Shown here: positions 21,821-40,794 of the stretch, piece by piece | Layout: every line of letters starts with the position of its first letter | How positions within the stretch are numbered: the stretch's first letter is position 1 | Virus genome (UHGV): UHGV-0168748 | Length of the DNA stretch: 44,209 nt | From: a virus | Direction: 5' to 3' (one strand) | Made by a program: the position numbers and the translations under genes | The notes under the pieces: generated by a model | Databases searched by the model: none | The model's input: the letters and a program-made list of their open reading frames with translations, nothing else | Told to the model about the DNA's origin: nothing

Positions 21821-22279
21821 TCAGTACAAACACGTCGTCAAGTATTGATTGTACGAATCGAGTAAGGTCTGACGGTCAGAACGGTAATTCCACAACAAAC
21901 TGTTAAGTTTTCGTGATAAGTCCCGACTAATTTCTTGCGGCGTTAAGGAACTTTCATCGAGTGATAAACGTTCAGGCACAACATGTAATTTCGGTAACTC
22001 ATAACGTTCGCAGAGTGGAGCCAACATCGGAGGGCTCCAGCCACGTTTAGCGGCTTGCTGATTTAAATTTCGTGTGTAGACATAAACGTAATAAGCATAG
22101 GTGTTGACGTCTGCAACATACTCACGCATTGCATCTTTGTCAATTTTCCAATTCACCATGATGGGTGGTGTCGGAGGAGGTTCCAATGGACGATAAGCTG
22201 CCCGTCTGACCTCTTCGCCGTAGCTATTACTCACCAAACCCATGAATACAACCATGATGAATAACAGCGTTTTCATCAA
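21821..22279 (-). CDS. secreted Pro-rich protein (signal peptide)
   Basis: N-terminal MMKTLLFIMVVFMGLVSNSYG then PLEPPPTPP; no lipobox cysteine. Confidence 0.5.
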   Translation of the reverse strand: MMKTLLFIMVVFMGLVSNSYGEEVRRAAYRPLEPPPTPPIMVNWKIDKDAMREYVADVNTYAYYVYVYTRNLNQQAAKRGWSPPMLAPLCERYELPKLHVVPERLSLDESSLTPQEISRDLSRKLNSLLWNYRSDRQTLLDSYNQYLTTCLY

Positions 22280-25837: not shown

Positions 25838-26317
25838 TTAAAATAGTGGCAGATTACGCCATTGTCCTATTGAATAGAAAGCTTTTGGGTGTTTACGGAT
25901 ATACTCTTTTGCTTCTTCCGGCAACCATCGATCGCCTGCACGTTTCTGTTGCGCAACAATAACCGCCAGTAACAAATACGGATTCTTCGAACCGGGGAAT
26001 TTCGCATTAGTTTCTAACGCAATATCTAACATCGACTCCCAGCCCAGGCTTTTATGCTGCGCTGGTAAGCGATCTTCAATGTACATTAACCAGTTCATGA
26101 TTTCTTTAGGTTTATACGGGCACGTATAATTCGCCCAACTAATCATGAAGAACTTAATAATCTTTGCGATAACCCATACAGGGATTGCTACGAATAAACA
26201 GAATATAGTTAACTGCGAAGCAGGCGCATTAACGAAAGTAACCGCCGCAAGAATCATAAACAACTCAAGTACCACAAACCAAAAACGTGTTGGATAACGC
26301 CAAATAAATTTTATCAT
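25838..26317 (-). CDS. hypothetical membrane protein (two TM helices)
   Basis: Two hydrophobic segments in N-terminal half; 159 aa. Confidence 0.5.
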   Translation of the reverse strand: MIKFIWRYPTRFWFVVLELFMILAAVTFVNAPASQLTIFCLFVAIPVWVIAKIIKFFMISWANYTCPYKPKEIMNWLMYIEDRLPAQHKSLGWESMLDIALETNAKFPGSKNPYLLLAVIVAQQKRAGDRWLPEEAKEYIRKHPKAFYSIGQWRNLPLF

Positions 26318-26381: not shown

Positions 26382-26891
26382 TTAGAAGAACGGTTGGTTT
26401 GGAATAACCGCGTATTCCAGAATGAACATGTGTTCAGGGGCGTCAGTTTTACGCCAGACTTTGTGTGTTGCTACGAGTTTTTCCAGAATCGTTAAGAAGC
26501 TACGTTGGCAGTAGGTGTTTTCGCCAAGTAACAGATTCTGAAGTTCTACAGTAGCATCCATATACGCTTGCTTAAAGACCAACCCACGGTTATACTGACC
26601 CGTATAGTTCCAGAGCAACACTTTACCTTCTTCGGTTTCTTTTACCGTTGGCCGTAGACCACAAATCCAGAGCAGTGCTAAGTTTACGTTCCAATCAAAC
26701 TCTTGCTCATTCTCGGGATCATCGCCGAAGGCAGTAGGCAAAGCATCGTAAAATTCGTGCTTCTCAGCGAAATCTTCATCCGATTTAATCTCGTCTTCGA
26801 TACTGCTTCGGACGATAGCGTAAACGTCTTTCGCGGTTAGTTGTGCGGCTTTTGTAATGCCTTTATACCAATCGGTTACAACGATGCTCAA
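26382..26891 (-). CDS. hypothetical protein
   Basis: 169-aa track ORF. Confidence 0.55.
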   Translation of the reverse strand: MSIVVTDWYKGITKAAQLTAKDVYAIVRSSIEDEIKSDEDFAEKHEFYDALPTAFGDDPENEQEFDWNVNLALLWICGLRPTVKETEEGKVLLWNYTGQYNRGLVFKQAYMDATVELQNLLLGENTYCQRSFLTILEKLVATHKVWRKTDAPEHMFILEYAVIPNQPFF

Positions 26892-27613
26892 AGGGCAACT
26901 CCTCTATTGATTGGAAAACTCGTGTTTATCGTATCCCAAATTCTACTGACTTCCGCCAATTGAATCTGACGTGGTGACTTCTTCGCAAACGCAAGCTGAC
27001 GTGGAGCCGAGCCCACAGCAGCAGGTACATCGATTTTCGCACTGTAAAATGCTGCGTCTTTCATAAACCCTGCCATTTCTCGTTGTGCTGCTCGAGATTT
27101 GCTTTTGATTCGTGCGTGTGCACCACTTTCACCCCAGTGGTAAGCTAACGCAACTTCAGCCATGGTGGGCTTGCGTTTGAGTCGTTTAGTTAACCCCTTT
27201 TCAAGATGCTTAATATACGCGGCAGCCAGCAAAACAGCATTACGCGGATTGTACAAATCGGCGTTCTGACTAAGACCTAATTCTTTTCCGTAAAGCTTTA
27301 GCAAATTACGTTTGGTACTCGGAACCATCTGTACCAGGCTGTGTGCTCTTGAGCTTTTATTGTAAGCTTTAGGATCAAAACGCGATTCACGGTAAATCAG
27401 CGTAACCATCAATTTAGGATCAACGCCTTGCTTTCGGGAGATTTCCACAATTAAAGGACTGACCTTTTCGAATCGATGTTGGATTTGTGCAAACTCACGA
27501 TGATGCTTAGATTGTGGCGTTGACGTTGACGCCTGTGCGTTAAACGCGAAAAGTGTTACCAGTAAAAGAAAGAAGATACGAAACATTTTGCTTCTCCAGT
27601 TGGATTTATACAT
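26888..27613 (-). CDS. lytic transglycosylase (SLT domain) with signal peptide
   Basis: Signal-like MFRIFFLLLVTLFAFNAQA; SLT motifs YRESRFDP, SLVQMVP, AAAYI. Confidence 0.6.
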   Translation of the reverse strand: MYKSNWRSKMFRIFFLLLVTLFAFNAQASTSTPQSKHHREFAQIQHRFEKVSPLIVEISRKQGVDPKLMVTLIYRESRFDPKAYNKSSRAHSLVQMVPSTKRNLLKLYGKELGLSQNADLYNPRNAVLLAAAYIKHLEKGLTKRLKRKPTMAEVALAYHWGESGAHARIKSKSRAAQREMAGFMKDAAFYSAKIDVPAAVGSAPRQLAFAKKSPRQIQLAEVSRIWDTINTSFPINRGVAL

Positions 27614-33583: not shown

Positions 33584-33660
33584 GATAATTCTCCTTTAGG
33601 TATAACAAGTCGTAAAAAGGACCCCGGACGAATCGGAACGTACCGGGGCCAAGACTACAC

Positions 33661-34050
33661 TCAGTAATCTAATTCGATAGCGCCTGCCATCTCACCGCGT
33701 TCTTCGATAACGATTAAGTAACGGTCGCGAGATTTGCTTTTAGCAAGCGATAAGACAACAGTAGGGTCGCACGTTTTCGTAGTGATAGGAAGAACCTCTT
33801 TTGCGACAGAATCAAGTAGGAAATAGTAACCGGCTGGGCACATCGCGCCCCCGTCGGCTTTCACCAGAATGTAGCGCCCATCTGCGCCGACTTCTTGACA
33901 GGTTGTTTCTCCATTCTCACAGACTTCAAAACTGGGTGGATTGTACTGATAATCGTCGTTGTTGTTTGCTGTCAGCAGTAAATCGTTAACCTGGGTAGAA
34001 GCAGTTACGCTCAGAGAGAAGAAGAATGCTAAAGCGCAAATGAAACGCAT
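33661..34050 (-). CDS. small secreted protein (signal peptide)
   Basis: MRFICALAFFFSLSVTAST; several cysteines in mature part. Confidence 0.55.
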   Translation of the reverse strand: MRFICALAFFFSLSVTASTQVNDLLLTANNNDDYQYNPPSFEVCENGETTCQEVGADGRYILVKADGGAMCPAGYYFLLDSVAKEVLPITTKTCDPTVVLSLAKSKSRDRYLIVIEERGEMAGAIELDY

Positions 34051-34060
34051 GAGTTACTCC

Positions 34061-34471
34061 TTAAATTTTAAGTTTATCCATAGCCACAACGATAGATTTT
34101 TCAGAGGTGTCTAATATCCCTACCCACGGCACACCATCTACGACTTGGAAGAACGGTTTGTTATTTCCAGAGCACAGACGCTTGTCGTTGTATTCGAGAC
34201 GTTGGGCTTTCCACGTTTCGAGGTTAAGTACCGACATAGGGCTGTCGTAGCACCAGGCACCGCCTTGCTCAACAACGAATACGTATCTGTTACCTTTGTA
34301 TTTAAACAGATTCTTCGTCTGGCAGTACAAACCATCGATTTCTGTACAGTAGAAATCATCGGTACTGTTGACGTATTTGATACCATCCGGTAATTTTATT
34401 GTTTTTGCTGTCACGTTAGCAGTGAAGAGAACAGCGATCGCAACGAGAAGCGTGTTGATGATATTTTTCAT
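34061..34471 (-). CDS. small secreted protein (signal peptide)
   Basis: MKNIINTLLVAIAVLFTANVTA. Confidence 0.55.
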   Translation of the reverse strand: MKNIINTLLVAIAVLFTANVTAKTIKLPDGIKYVNSTDDFYCTEIDGLYCQTKNLFKYKGNRYVFVVEQGGAWCYDSPMSVLNLETWKAQRLEYNDKRLCSGNNKPFFQVVDGVPWVGILDTSEKSIVVAMDKLKI

Positions 34472-34482
34472 GATAAACGTCC

Positions 34483-34968
34483 TTAGTATTTAGATTGTTC
34501 CGCGTATTTCTTAACCAGATAAGCGAATTCAGCAACACCGATATCACCGAACCAAATCAGGTAACCGGGGTCGATGTTGTAGTAATAACCGACGAGTTCG
34601 TTGGTTTGTGGGTTGTATAACGTTACGATATATTCCCAGCCACAAGCGTTAGCTTTACAGCCACCACTTTCAATCCAGATTTTGTTATTAATGTTTACCG
34701 GGTACATCGCACCGCCGGGGCCATCCATGTAACCTTTAGCACCGAACATACCATTCAATCCTACCGGGTCCAGTGTTTTATCAACAACCGCTTTAAATGA
34801 CTTATCGGTATCGTACACGTCGTTGATGTTTGGACACGCGTTAGGTTGTCCGTCCCATGCGTTGGTGTCGCATGTAAGCGCATCTTTCACTGATGCTGCA
34901 TCAACAGTTGGTGTAACACCGATAAACATGAAAGCCAGAAAGAACATCAGTGTGTGTAAACGTTTCAT
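34483..34968 (-). CDS. small secreted protein, possibly Ivy-like
   Basis: Signal peptide MKRLHTLMFFLAFMFIGVTPTVDA; GGCKANACGW loop resembles the CKPHDCG loop of Ivy lysozyme inhibitors. Confidence 0.5.
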   Translation of the reverse strand: MKRLHTLMFFLAFMFIGVTPTVDAASVKDALTCDTNAWDGQPNACPNINDVYDTDKSFKAVVDKTLDPVGLNGMFGAKGYMDGPGGAMYPVNINNKIWIESGGCKANACGWEYIVTLYNPQTNELVGYYYNIDPGYLIWFGDIGVAEFAYLVKKYAEQSKY

Positions 34969-34986
34969 CGTAACTACTCCTTTAGA

Positions 34987-35382
34987 TTATTCAGCAGGGC
35001 GATTTAAAGTAACACGACCGATTAATTCGGCATTATGAAAGAAATCTACAGCGGTATAATTACCAACTGATAACGGGTGAATACTAACCGACATGACTTT
35101 TGGTTGTTCGCAAGCAATATCAGTTAGACGTTGATAGACACGTGCGCCGTTATCGGCAATGATTAGTCCGGTGCATGTACTGTCACGCATCAGGCGGTAC
35201 ACCTCTAGTTTACCGAAGCTCCGCATTAGTGTTGGTGTTTCATCAGGATTAATAATTGGGGAATCTGGTGCTGGGTCGTAGTAGCGGATATCCGATTCAC
35301 CGAAAGCGTACGTACCGGTAATACCGATAGCGCAGAAAATAATGATAGTATAAAGTATAGTTTTAATATTCATTTCACGCAC
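34987..35382 (-). CDS. small secreted protein (signal peptide)
   Basis: MNIKTILYTIIIFCAIGITGTYA. Confidence 0.5.
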   Translation of the reverse strand: MREMNIKTILYTIIIFCAIGITGTYAFGESDIRYYDPAPDSPIINPDETPTLMRSFGKLEVYRLMRDSTCTGLIIADNGARVYQRLTDIACEQPKVMSVSIHPLSVGNYTAVDFFHNAELIGRVTLNRPAE

Positions 35383-35433
35383 TCCTTAAATAGAACGGGG
35401 ACCACGAAGTCCCCCCCCCTTTTTTTCCTGTAA

Positions 35434-35904
35434 TTATTGTTCGTATTCGGTGTTCCAGCAAGATTCGAGGAAGTTACCGTCCATCACTTTCTTAACGTTT
35501 TTGGCTGATGGGTTAAAGGTAGCAACCTTTTTCTGGTCGAGGTATAAGTCAAACTCAGTTGCTGTAGAGATTGCTTTTACAAAACTAACCCAAGTATTGT
35601 CGGTATTACGTGTGCCGTCAGGAACTACACCCCAGAACTCTTCACCATCGATAACGAAACTAATGTCGTTATCTTCCGAGTTGGCCACCACATTACCATC
35701 TTTAGAGATAAAGATCTTGTGTGGTAAAATGTTGTTTTCATCTGGATTACCGGTACAGCTAATGGTAATACCCCATCCACCGTTATCGATACCATACTCG
35801 GTTTCACCCATTGCAAAGCCACTACCCCACATGTTCGGAATGGCCTGTGCAGCAGTGGCGCTTACAGTTAAAACGATAGCTAAGAAGATGTTAGACAGTT
35901 TCAT
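35434..35904 (-). CDS. small secreted protein, paralogue of 35942-36397
   Basis: Signal peptide; conserved blocks TISCTGN, SFVIDGEEF, TWVSFVKAI shared with the neighbour. Confidence 0.55.
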   Translation of the reverse strand: MKLSNIFLAIVLTVSATAAQAIPNMWGSGFAMGETEYGIDNGGWGITISCTGNPDENNILPHKIFISKDGNVVANSEDNDISFVIDGEEFWGVVPDGTRNTDNTWVSFVKAISTATEFDLYLDQKKVATFNPSAKNVKKVMDGNFLESCWNTEYEQ

Positions 35905-35941
35905 GGTTATATTCCTTTTAGTTTAAAAATTAAGTTATTTA

Positions 35942-36397
35942 TCAAGGACGGCTATGTCCACAGTTCTTAAAGAAAGTTTCGGGCAGACGCTCACCATCTA
36001 CAATAAAGTTAGCGGCTTCGTTACCGTTGATAGCCACACCGAAGCTTTTTGCATTAGCGATAGCATTAGCGAAGGCAACCCAAGCTTTTTCTGCTTTGTC
36101 GCTGCCGTCAATAGTGGGAATGATATAGTTTTTGCCGTTTACGACAATACTCATTTCGTTGTCTTCGGCATTAGTTGAACCGACCGGTTCACCGTAATAC
36201 CAAACCATGCGACCGTAAAACTTACGATTAGCCGTTGCGGTATCGCAGTTGATAGACAAGCTGTTCCCATTTTCGTCTTCGATTTCGTAAACAGCATTTC
36301 CCGGACTTTGAAGTCCTTCCCAGCTTCCGATTGCGGCGTAAGCGTTATTGAGACCGAAAGTTAAAAGGGTTACTAAGAATGCGATAAAAGTTTTCAT
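35942..36397 (-). CDS. small secreted protein, paralogue of 35434-35904
   Basis: Signal peptide; conserved blocks SINCDTA, SIVVNGKNY, AWVAFANAI. Confidence 0.55.
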   Translation of the reverse strand: MKTFIAFLVTLLTFGLNNAYAAIGSWEGLQSPGNAVYEIEDENGNSLSINCDTATANRKFYGRMVWYYGEPVGSTNAEDNEMSIVVNGKNYIIPTIDGSDKAEKAWVAFANAIANAKSFGVAINGNEAANFIVDGERLPETFFKNCGHSRP

Positions 36398-36446
36398 TGA
36401 AATACTCCTTAAAGGTTAACAGGTTAAAAGAGTTAATCGTAACTCT

Positions 36447-36470
36447 CACCTAAGTAATATATATCTGAAA
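36447..36470. promoter_or_regulatory. conserved 24-bp intergenic element, copy 1
   Basis: CACCTAAGTAATATATATCTGAAA; 23/24 identical to 40771-40794; flanked by hairpin AGAGTTA-ATCG-TAACTCT. Confidence 0.45.
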
Positions 36471-36489: not shown

Positions 36490-36520
36490 ACAAAAAAGAA
36501 AGTGGGAGCAATGCTCCCAC
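36490..36520 (-). terminator. rho-independent terminator
   Basis: GTGGGAG-CAATG-CTCCCAC, U-run on minus strand. Confidence 0.6.
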
Positions 36521-36525
36521 TGCGT

Positions 36526-40688: not shown

Positions 40689-40770
40689 TGGTCTGTTTCC
40701 TAATAACGTGGTAACTCCGTTTCGAAAGAAACGTGTCCGTAGGGACTGAACTCGCACTTCAGTCCCTATT

Positions 40771-40794
40771 CACCTAAGTAAAATATATCTGAAA
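40771..40794. promoter_or_regulatory. conserved 24-bp intergenic element, copy 2
   Basis: CACCTAAGTAAAATATATCTGAAA; adjacent perfect 10-bp hairpin AGGGACTGAA-CTCGCAC-TTCAGTCCCT. Confidence 0.45.

Follow-up and report, generated by a model that had tools for sequence, protein, structure and literature searches.

What does a jumbo phage do with a row of six small proteins that all appear to be sent out of the cytoplasm of its host? The question is raised by six adjacent genes on the minus strand of UHGV virus genome UHGV-0168748, located at positions 33661-36397 of the 44,209-nucleotide (nt) stretch of DNA that was analysed here (hereinafter the window). The window was found to belong to a jumbo phage that has Salmonella phage SPN3US and Erwinia phage phiEaH2 among its relatives (21-58% amino acid (aa) identity). 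Nucleus-forming jumbo phages are known mainly for shielding their DNA inside the cell, and their effects on the host envelope are barely described. Our tentative answer, held with somewhat more doubt than belief, is that the six-gene unit of this nucleus-forming-type phage encodes exported periplasmic binders that neutralise envelope enzymes, that a loop of one product (g3) blocks a peptidoglycan-cleaving enzyme, and that superinfection exclusion is the outcome. Phage-encoded exported modifiers or inhibitors of the envelope are a known kind of protein. What appears to be new, as judged from sequence comparison, is a conserved core of exported proteins in three jumbo-phage genera, an Ivy-like cassette member absent from deposited phage genomes, and a homologous block in nearly half of the complete Escherichia coli genomes. 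A conserved exported-protein operon is defined here in SPN3US-like phages, and for g3 it comes with a testable prediction, namely inhibition of lysozyme or lytic transglycosylase via an Ivy-like loop.

Gene structure and export signals

The first-pass annotation of the window had described the region as an array of small genes with signal peptides and ribosome-binding sites of their own, and this outline was borne out. All six open reading frames (ORFs), referred to as g6 to g1 in the direction of the minus strand, were present, with products of 128-161 aa and spacers of 10-60 nt between them. Every gene was preceded by a Shine-Dalgarno sequence (AAGGAG, AAAGGA or TAAGGA) 7-9 nt upstream. For g4, the ORF offered a GTG start at 35382 (131 aa) and an ATG start at 35373 (128 aa), and the ATG was adopted because the spacing of AAGGAG and all orthologs favoured it.

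Export signals were judged by explicit rules: the count of K/R, the apolar run, the Kyte-Doolittle mean and the presence of a small-x-small site. All six N-termini fitted Sec-type rules: one or two K/R preceded an apolar stretch 12-19 residues long, the best Kyte-Doolittle mean over 10 residues was 2.6-3.0, and the small-x-small sites read, from g6 to g1, AYA/A, AQA/I, TYA/F, VDA/A, VTA/K and VTA/S (the slash marks the predicted cleavage). The hydrophobicity test was passed by 9 of the 55 gene-like ORFs in the window, and six of these nine constituted the array; a run of at least six export-type ORFs had a chance probability of 1.4e-4 in a simulation. No lipobox was found among the six proteins. 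The mature proteins had masses of 11.8-15.1 kDa, and five of the six were acidic (isoelectric points of 4.2-5.1).

The earlier remark that several of the proteins contain cysteine proved to be an understatement. Cysteines were present in all six mature proteins and in even numbers (2, 2, 2, 4, 4 and 4 from g6 to g1), and the family alignments showed them to be invariant or almost so. Even, conserved cysteines together with an export signal are the pattern expected of disulfide-bonded periplasmic proteins, which is what the six products are predicted to be. Scans of the six proteins against Pfam, NCBIfam and PADLOC returned nothing besides a weak Ivy match, and with the hidden Markov models of PADLOC v2 no defence match was obtained at E<=1.

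Protein families of the array

The most informative member of the array was g3 (34483-34968, minus strand), which encodes a 161-aa protein with four cysteines and, by the rule-based check, the signal peptide MKRLHTLMFFLAFMFIGVTPTVDA cleaved before A. Four methods, treated as independent of each other, tied this protein to the lysozyme inhibitor Ivy: phmmer, NCBIfam, hhalign, and AF2 modelling followed by Foldseek. Its AF2 model (pLDDT 75.5, pTM 0.71) recovered Ivy structures from the PDB at all of Foldseek ranks 1-8 (1xs0, 1gpq, 4ps6, 1uuz; probability 0.93-1.0, E 7e-3 to 5e-2), and the next PDB match had a probability of 0.21. The target-normalised TM score of 0.39-0.55 corresponded to moderate similarity. 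In sequence searches, 1gpq/1xs0 were among the top phmmer matches in the PDB (E 0.8, g3 residues 91-134); the sole NCBIfam match was NF007443, "Ivy family C-type lysozyme inhibitor", with a score of 16.7 bits (E 0.005) where the cutoff is 180 bits; and hhalign of the g3 family with E. coli Ivy gave E 4e-4 over 81 columns with a probability of 34.5%. No match to Pfam, including Ivy (PF08816), was obtained at E<=1.

The three sequence methods aligned the same segment, placing C104-K-A-N-A-C109-G of g3 on C-K-P-H-D-C-G of Ivy. Both cysteines and the lysine of this loop were invariant in eight homologs, and the central His of Ivy was Asn in g3 and His (CKAHAC) in the E. coli homolog P0009. In Ivy, as Abergel et al. 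in 2007 are said to have found, the disulfide-closed CKPHDC loop with its central His enters the active site of lysozyme. Like the Ivy proteins (E. coli Ivy/YkfE and P. aeruginosa Ivyp1; 1gpq, 1xs0, 1uuz, 4ps6), g3 is small (approximately 15 kDa) and has a predicted periplasmic location, its model has helices at the N-terminus, one helix at the C-terminus and an antiparallel beta sheet, and a disulfide-closed six-residue loop of the form C-K-x-x-x-C-G lies between two strands. Unlike Ivy, it has a sequence similarity to the family at the edge of noise (E 0.005-0.8), carries an extra N-terminal cysteine pair, and is encoded in a phage/island cassette instead of a housekeeping locus. Full Ivy membership was not assigned, because the scores lay far under the curated cutoffs and Asn replaces the His. 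In our view g3 is probably a divergent protein of the Ivy fold that does not qualify for the family by curated criteria. No tblastn match to g3 was found among 50,697 deposited phage genomes, and in a pattern-limited scan of the GTDB species representatives the g3 type occurred in Shigella flexneri only.

The first two genes of the array, g6 (35942-36397, minus strand; 151 aa) and g5 (35434-35904, minus strand; 156 aa), were paralogs with 26% identity (E 5e-11), and both belonged to the YkfB family. The g6 protein, which also matched phrog_3429, had the signal peptide MKTFIAFLVTLLTFGLNNAYA cleaved before A and two cysteines in its mature part; g5, likewise with two cysteines and predicted export, had the cleavage site SATAAQA/I. 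Identity to E. coli YkfB was 37% over 146 aa for g5 (E 1e-30) and 27% over 136 aa for g6 (E 6e-15), and homologs of g5 carried Pfam PF27224 in a precomputed table. YkfB is an orphan protein of the CP4-6 cryptic prophage of strain K-12, and no functional study of ykfB was found among the papers searched. A library of 1.84 billion proteins contained 187 representative clusters of the family, and the bulk of its members were stand-alone exported-type proteins of about 150 aa from gammaproteobacteria. A profile search of the family against the PDB gave only insignificant Ig-like matches. Similar to g3, g5 had no tblastn match among the 50,697 phage genomes. The claim of the first-pass annotation that none of the proteins matches a nameable family is thus corrected for three of the genes, with g5 and g6 in the YkfB family and g3 Ivy-like, and its suggestion of an envelope role was advanced in part, by one concrete handle: the Ivy-like fold that structure prediction and Foldseek brought out for g3.

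At the other end of the array, g1 (33661-34050, minus strand; 129 aa; phrog_5248) and g2 (34061-34471, minus strand; 136 aa; phrog_8968) encode putative all-beta proteins with predicted export, orthologous to SPN3US gp183 and gp182, respectively. The identity of g2 to gp182 was 32%. Together with the SPN3US gp181 type they formed a family (family A) defined by a four-cysteine framework, F-x-x-C, C, GG-x-x-C-P-x-G and T-C. The AF2 model of g1 was weak (pLDDT 63, limited alignment depth), with a seven-strand beta core at pLDDT 70-85. A Pfam scan of all family A members yielded scattered noise only. A match to the designed protein ThreeFoil in a PDB profile search (E 2e-8) was rejected: it consisted of three identical repeats of 11-12 bits each with per-domain E >1, and its total was discounted because the summing of repeats inflates it. 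The lysozyme inhibitor family PliC/MliC (PF09864) was also considered. Family A had no Pfam match to it and lacked the SxSGAxY and YxxxTKG motifs, and Foldseek with the low-confidence g1 model (pLDDT 63) did not recover PliC, so that the link is kept as a lead, not as an assignment. In K-12, the inner-membrane lipoprotein YafY is encoded next to ykfB in CP4-6 (locus L020, 4111-4554), and hhalign of the family A core with YafY gave a probability of 69% (E 4.5e-5) over 48 columns, with both C-terminal cysteines aligned. The slot in K-12 may accordingly contain relatives of the phage families of both the lipoprotein and the soluble kind.

The remaining gene, g4 (34987-35373, minus strand, within an ORF extending to 35382; phrog_9424), encodes a predicted exported protein with two invariant cysteines and a well-conserved C-terminal motif, CTG..A(D/N)..YQRL.DI.C.QP..SVS.P..F(Y/F)HN..GR(I/V)T. 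It showed 44% identity to its SPN3US ortholog gp180. The g4 family had no relative in Pfam (scattered noise) or, by profile search, in the PDB.

Conserved phage core and the related block in E. coli islands

Orthologs of g4, g2 and g1 with signal peptides were found at the same locus in the three genera surveyed, Seoulvirus (SPN3US gp180/gp182/gp183, pEa_SNUABM_29, SPAsTU), Erskinevirus (phiEaH2, Asesino) and Machinavirus (Caitlin, ChrisDB, pEa_SNUABM_43). Orthologs of the array proteins had identities of 30-90%, and the signal-peptide architecture was retained in every ortholog examined, whereas the flanking genes had none. Those neighbours were syntenic with SPN3US, with a gp179 homolog upstream and homologs of gp184, gp185 and the SMC/SbcC-like gp186 downstream. 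No description of SPN3US gp180-183 or of SPN3US signal peptides was found in the literature.

The third position of this core varied between lineages: a gp181-type gene occupied it in Seoulvirus and Erskinevirus, it was empty in Machinavirus, and it held g3 in the present lineage. Orthology of g3 with SPN3US gp181 was rejected, as the identity was 19-25% and gp181 belongs to the four-cysteine family A. Proteins P0040-P0043 of Salmonella phages SPFM1, SPFM6, SPFM8 and SPFM12 contained gp181-type segments in permuted order and look like assembly or annotation artefacts.

More variation was seen between the promoter described below and g4. This slot was empty in SPN3US; pEa29, SPAsTU and phiEaH2 had a non-exported gene of 79 aa there, and Machinavirus had other non-exported genes. 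Of the close relatives, five had g6 alone and the others a non-exported gene of 123 aa, in some cases accompanied by g6; g6 was present in most but not all relatives of the lineage. Only in the window did g6 and g5 occur together, g5 being an insertion unique among about ten relatives. The array is best described, from these comparisons, as a composite of a conserved core (g4, the position-3 gene, g2 and g1) and a variable head slot, here apparently filled by two YkfB-family genes. The idea of an accessory island consequently holds for the head slot, which differs between close relatives and has g5 in this phage only, and does not hold for g4, g2 and g1, which are core genes at one locus in three genera. 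The array genes evolved no faster than their neighbours (64-86% versus 44-84% identity to the closest relative), and because their identity is no lower, no signal of an arms race was seen.

The closer relatives, with about 76-90% identity, were metagenomic viral contigs of 220-228 kb and NZ_CP173450.1. The latter was deposited as "plasmid p98232-contig_4" of E. coli 98232, a clinical urine isolate. It is circular (221,873 bp) and represents a complete genome of a related jumbo phage, with approximately 76% nt identity across the array. Contigs of 199-238 kb with a g6-type gene were also present in assemblies of Salmonella and Shigella isolates. The occurrence of jumbo-phage genomes in isolate assemblies suggests a carrier state, pseudolysogeny or contamination.

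Outside phages, DNA of the g4-g1 segment matched 2460 of the 5426 complete E. coli genomes (about 45%), typically over g3 and g2 at about 70% nt identity. In addition, g5 matched a CP4-type island gene in 225 of the 5426 at about 75-77% identity. Unlike these cassette genes, g1 and g6 had no chromosomal DNA match in E. coli. In every case examined, the homologs lay in CP4-type integrative islands, in a slot between a GTPase/dynamin-like/RdcB/patatin cluster and a DUF932-antirestriction-RadC-CbeA/CbtA module. Nearly half of the complete genomes, O157:H7 included, carry genes of the cassette in this variable slot of their CP4-type islands. The order in the islands mirrored that in the phage: a YkfB-like gene of the g5 type came first, followed by a gene for a further exported protein, the decayed remnant of g4, a g3-like gene and a g2-like gene. 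The ykfB/yafY genes of CP4-6 and the equivalents of CP4-44/CP4-57 type resemble the phage cassette in that, like g5 and g6, they include YkfB-family members, and the island genes differ from the cassette in being chromosomal and in having g4 as a pseudogene. Remnants of g4, frameshifted or internally deleted, were located in un-annotated island DNA (L012, 7684-7979; L005, 9181-9545; L018, 6007-6371), directly upstream of a g3-like or gp181-like gene. The gene was intact in every phage. As the block is otherwise kept in E. coli islands, the cassette genes would appear to work outside a phage context.

The g2-like protein of O157:H7 had 63% identity to g2 and 76% to its counterpart in the closest phage relative, compared with 28-37% to the g2-type proteins that SPN3US and the Erwinia phages encode. 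Because it is so much closer to the former, the exchange is likely to have involved this E. coli-associated phage lineage. In terms of origin, g4 and g2 look ancient in phages, and g3 and g5 look bacterial or lineage-specific. An island protein of E. coli AR_452 (L005, 9588-10040; 150 aa) had a signal peptide 54% identical to that of g3 over 28 aa, joined to a mature part that was weakly gp181-like (E 0.009), which suggests shuffling between exported-protein genes at the signal-peptide boundary. PADLOC detected only faint LeoBC (Eleos) and phospholipase matches among the neighbouring island genes.

Transcription unit, proposed function and rival readings

The array was bounded by two putative terminators on the minus strand. 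Upstream, the terminator of the preceding gene (the gp179 homolog) at 36501-36521 had a 9-bp stem with six GC pairs and a following T-run; downstream of g1, a hairpin GGCCCCGG...CCGGGGTCC with a T-run was located at 33621-33639. Between the upstream terminator and g6, a candidate promoter motif of the phiKZ type, TTTCAGATATATATTACTTAGGTGAG, was found at 36445-36470 (minus strand). It fits the class of promoters of phiKZ-like jumbo phages, being an AT-rich motif that contains TATATTAC upstream of the unit, and it matched the published consensus motifs of phiKZ (TATATTAC), 201phi2-1 (TTTRARR_BTATATTACDWHDGTG) and N1M2 (TTTCARRYAKATATTAT) (PMC7058600 Table 2). A 73-nt stretch at the motif had 85-90% identity to un-annotated intergenic DNA of SPN3US-like phages, a similarity for which the promoter motif match accounts, and the motif directly followed the gp179 homolog in every relative examined. 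The bare 8-mer was not enriched in the window (two found versus 1.6 expected). The extended 25-nt motif occurred twice, each time upstream of minus-strand genes, and the second copy (40770-40794, minus strand) lay ahead of another minus-strand gene block. In phiKZ, this type of motif marks early genes, and by analogy the array would be transcribed early in infection.

A 7-bp stem-loop, AGAGTTA-cgat-TAACTCT, was predicted by folding at 36429-36446 (minus strand), probably at the 5' end of the transcript. The same arrangement was observed elsewhere: the promoter-like motif (T/C)TCAGATATAT(A/T)TTAC(T/C)TAGGTG was always followed by a hairpin within about 10 nt (window 36429-36470 and 40735-40794, both minus strand; L001, 5910; L004 (NZ_CP173450.1), 3677/8042; L006, 764; L010, 1911; L021, 2674; and others). 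This applied to 16 of 16 instances in the window and related loci, with minimum free energies of -6 to -18 kcal/mol when each was folded singly. The arms differed between copies (AGAGTTA/TAACTCT, AGCATTGA/TCAATGCT, GGGACTGAA/TTCAGTCCC, GTGAGAGT/ACTCTCAC), and RNAalifold did not recover the downstream hairpin in the promoter region because the arms could not be aligned. The element appears to be a 5' stem-loop, conserved in structure, that is carried by one class of jumbo-phage transcripts. In SPN3US (L001, 5903-5985), pEa_SNUABM_29 (L002, 5647-5730) and SPAsTU (L011, 2146-2230), a strong terminator, GGCTACCTTCGGGTAGCC with a T-run, lay approximately 20 nt after motif and hairpin and ahead of the first cassette gene; a small transcript of approximately 60 nt might result, or the element might serve as an attenuator-like leader.

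On these grounds a mechanism can be outlined. We take gene structure, export signals by rule, conservation, family assignments and island homology as read directly, and from them we infer early timing, enzyme inhibition, its target and exclusion. The six genes would be transcribed as one unit from the phiKZ-type motif to the terminator after g1. All six products would be exported via the host Sec system, folded with disulfides in the periplasm, and would act there as soluble binders that neutralise envelope enzymes. The disulfide-closed loop of g3 would enter the active-site cleft of an enzyme that cleaves peptidoglycan, either a lysozyme or a lytic transglycosylase. In Ivy-type inhibitors, a loop between beta strands is inserted into the active site of lysozyme, as is also the case for PliC, MliC, PliG and PliI (PMC7677548), and inhibition of a lytic transglycosylase by Ivy is reported as well (Clarke et al., 2010). 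By analogy with T4 Spackle alone, the murein of the infected cell might be shielded from tail-associated hydrolases of superinfecting phages.

Spackle (gp61.3) and Imm are proteins of T4 that are exported early and exclude superinfecting phages; Spackle does so by inhibiting the tail lysozyme gp5 in the periplasm (PMC7677548). Spackle shares the proposed logic of the cassette, as a small signal-peptide protein of a lytic myovirus directed against a peptidoglycan hydrolase. Its structure differs, since Spackle is an alpha-helical bundle that acts as an allosteric inhibitor and the models of g3 and g1 are built on beta sheets, and a single protein that causes exclusion is compared here with six proteins of four families. 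For none of these families did the listed PDB matches, by sequence or by fold, include a Spackle chain. The likeness is one of mechanism by analogy only. If phage exclusion by the cassette is true, the host range in phage therapy would be affected, cryptic-prophage cargo of the YkfB/YafY type would be explained, and a secreted-inhibitor mode would join the defence repertoire. The same block in CP4-type islands could give the bacterium a similar envelope-level protection. The bolder version, in which decoys or inhibitors of wall-piercing enzymes form a periplasmic shield by which jumbo phages exclude competitors, and in which the g5/g3/g2 part was captured by the E. coli islands as envelope-level immunity in approximately 45% of genomes, is in our judgement rather unlikely. 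If island immunity is true, it would amount to a secreted and non-abortive kind of anti-phage defence that is new as a class, and the orphan K-12 genes ykfB and yafY would gain a function.

Other functions were weighed against superinfection exclusion. The cassette, and g3 above all, might control lysis by the phage itself, keeping an exported SLT-type endolysin inactive until the time of lysis or tuning lysis inhibition; it would then be a new type of lysis regulator. A candidate target of g3 is encoded in the window at 26888-27613 (minus strand), a 241-aa protein with a signal- or SAR (signal-arrest-release)-like N-terminus (MYKSNWRSKMFRIFFLLLVTLFAFNAQA), an SLT domain (PF01464, E 1.5e-15) and a phrog transglycosylase match (2e-48), orthologous to the "putative endolysin" of SPN3US (51.5% identity). 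A Sec-exported endolysin needs restraint, and the reported inhibition of lytic transglycosylase by Ivy (Clarke et al., 2010) would suit such a role. However, SPN3US has the same endolysin without an Ivy-like g3, genes of the g3, g2 and g5 types are retained in E. coli islands that lack this endolysin, and in phiKZ a promoter motif of this type is an early one, so that lysis control is regarded as not very likely. A similarly modest weight is given to other ends in the envelope without a link to peptidoglycan hydrolases, such as receptor masking or blocking, or action on periplasmic proteases, Tol-Pal, porins or a membrane-acting host defence. Four unrelated families side by side suggest several targets, the island copies adjoin the patatin/RdcB/dynamin-like GTPase cluster with its faint similarity to Eleos LeoBC and phospholipase effectors, and family A has its weak link to the lipoprotein YafY (hhalign probability 69%). 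Positive evidence for a target of this kind was not obtained, no lipobox occurs in the six proteins, and the one fold that was assigned speaks for lysozyme inhibitors.

The distribution of the genes also allows a reading as host-benefit or carriage genes, according to which the g3, g5 and g2 types are island genes by which enterobacteria withstand animal lysozymes or other envelope stress, acquired by the phage through recombination, that aid a long-lived carrier state or are near-neutral passengers. E. coli chromosomes contain homologs far more often (2460/5426) than phages do (none for g3 and g5 in 50,697 genomes), classical Ivy protects against vertebrate lysozyme (PMC2267010), and jumbo-phage DNA was present in bacterial assemblies as the circular 221.9-kb "plasmid" of a urinary E. 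coli and the 199-238-kb contigs of Salmonella and Shigella. Nevertheless, the position of g4, g2 and g1 at one locus across three lytic jumbo-phage genera with different hosts argues for a phage function, g4 is decayed in the islands while every phage keeps it intact, and we judge the host-benefit reading unlikely. Virion or assembly proteins, or spurious ORFs, are highly improbable. Jumbo phages do have many small virion proteins without known function, and the genes lie approximately 5 kb from a baseplate-type gene (annotated as baseplate assembly protein) in SPN3US, but mass spectrometry of SPN3US virions listed no product between gp173 and gp193 (PMC5105663 Table S4), so that gp180-183, the orthologs whose presence would have spoken for a structural role, are absent from the list. 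Spurious ORFs were ruled out by the signal peptides, ribosome-binding sites, conserved cysteines and orthologs at 30-90% identity.

Within the array, a further GC-rich hairpin or terminator was located after g5 at 35397-35414 (minus strand). The E. coli DNA match to g5 ran through this hairpin, which indicates that it probably arrived together with the g5 insertion. On its 5' side, right after the g5 stop codon, a homopolymer tract of A7 followed by G9 (aaaaaaaggggggggg) was observed at 35415-35431 (minus strand), a possible hotspot of slippage or recombination. Elsewhere in the window, two more small ORFs with hydrophobic N-termini were found at 21821-22279 and 25838-26317 (both minus strand); one of the pair encodes 152 aa (phrog_8165) with the signal-like N-terminus MMKTLLFIMVVFMGLVSNSYG, and the other 159 aa (phrog_20030) with a likely transmembrane segment.

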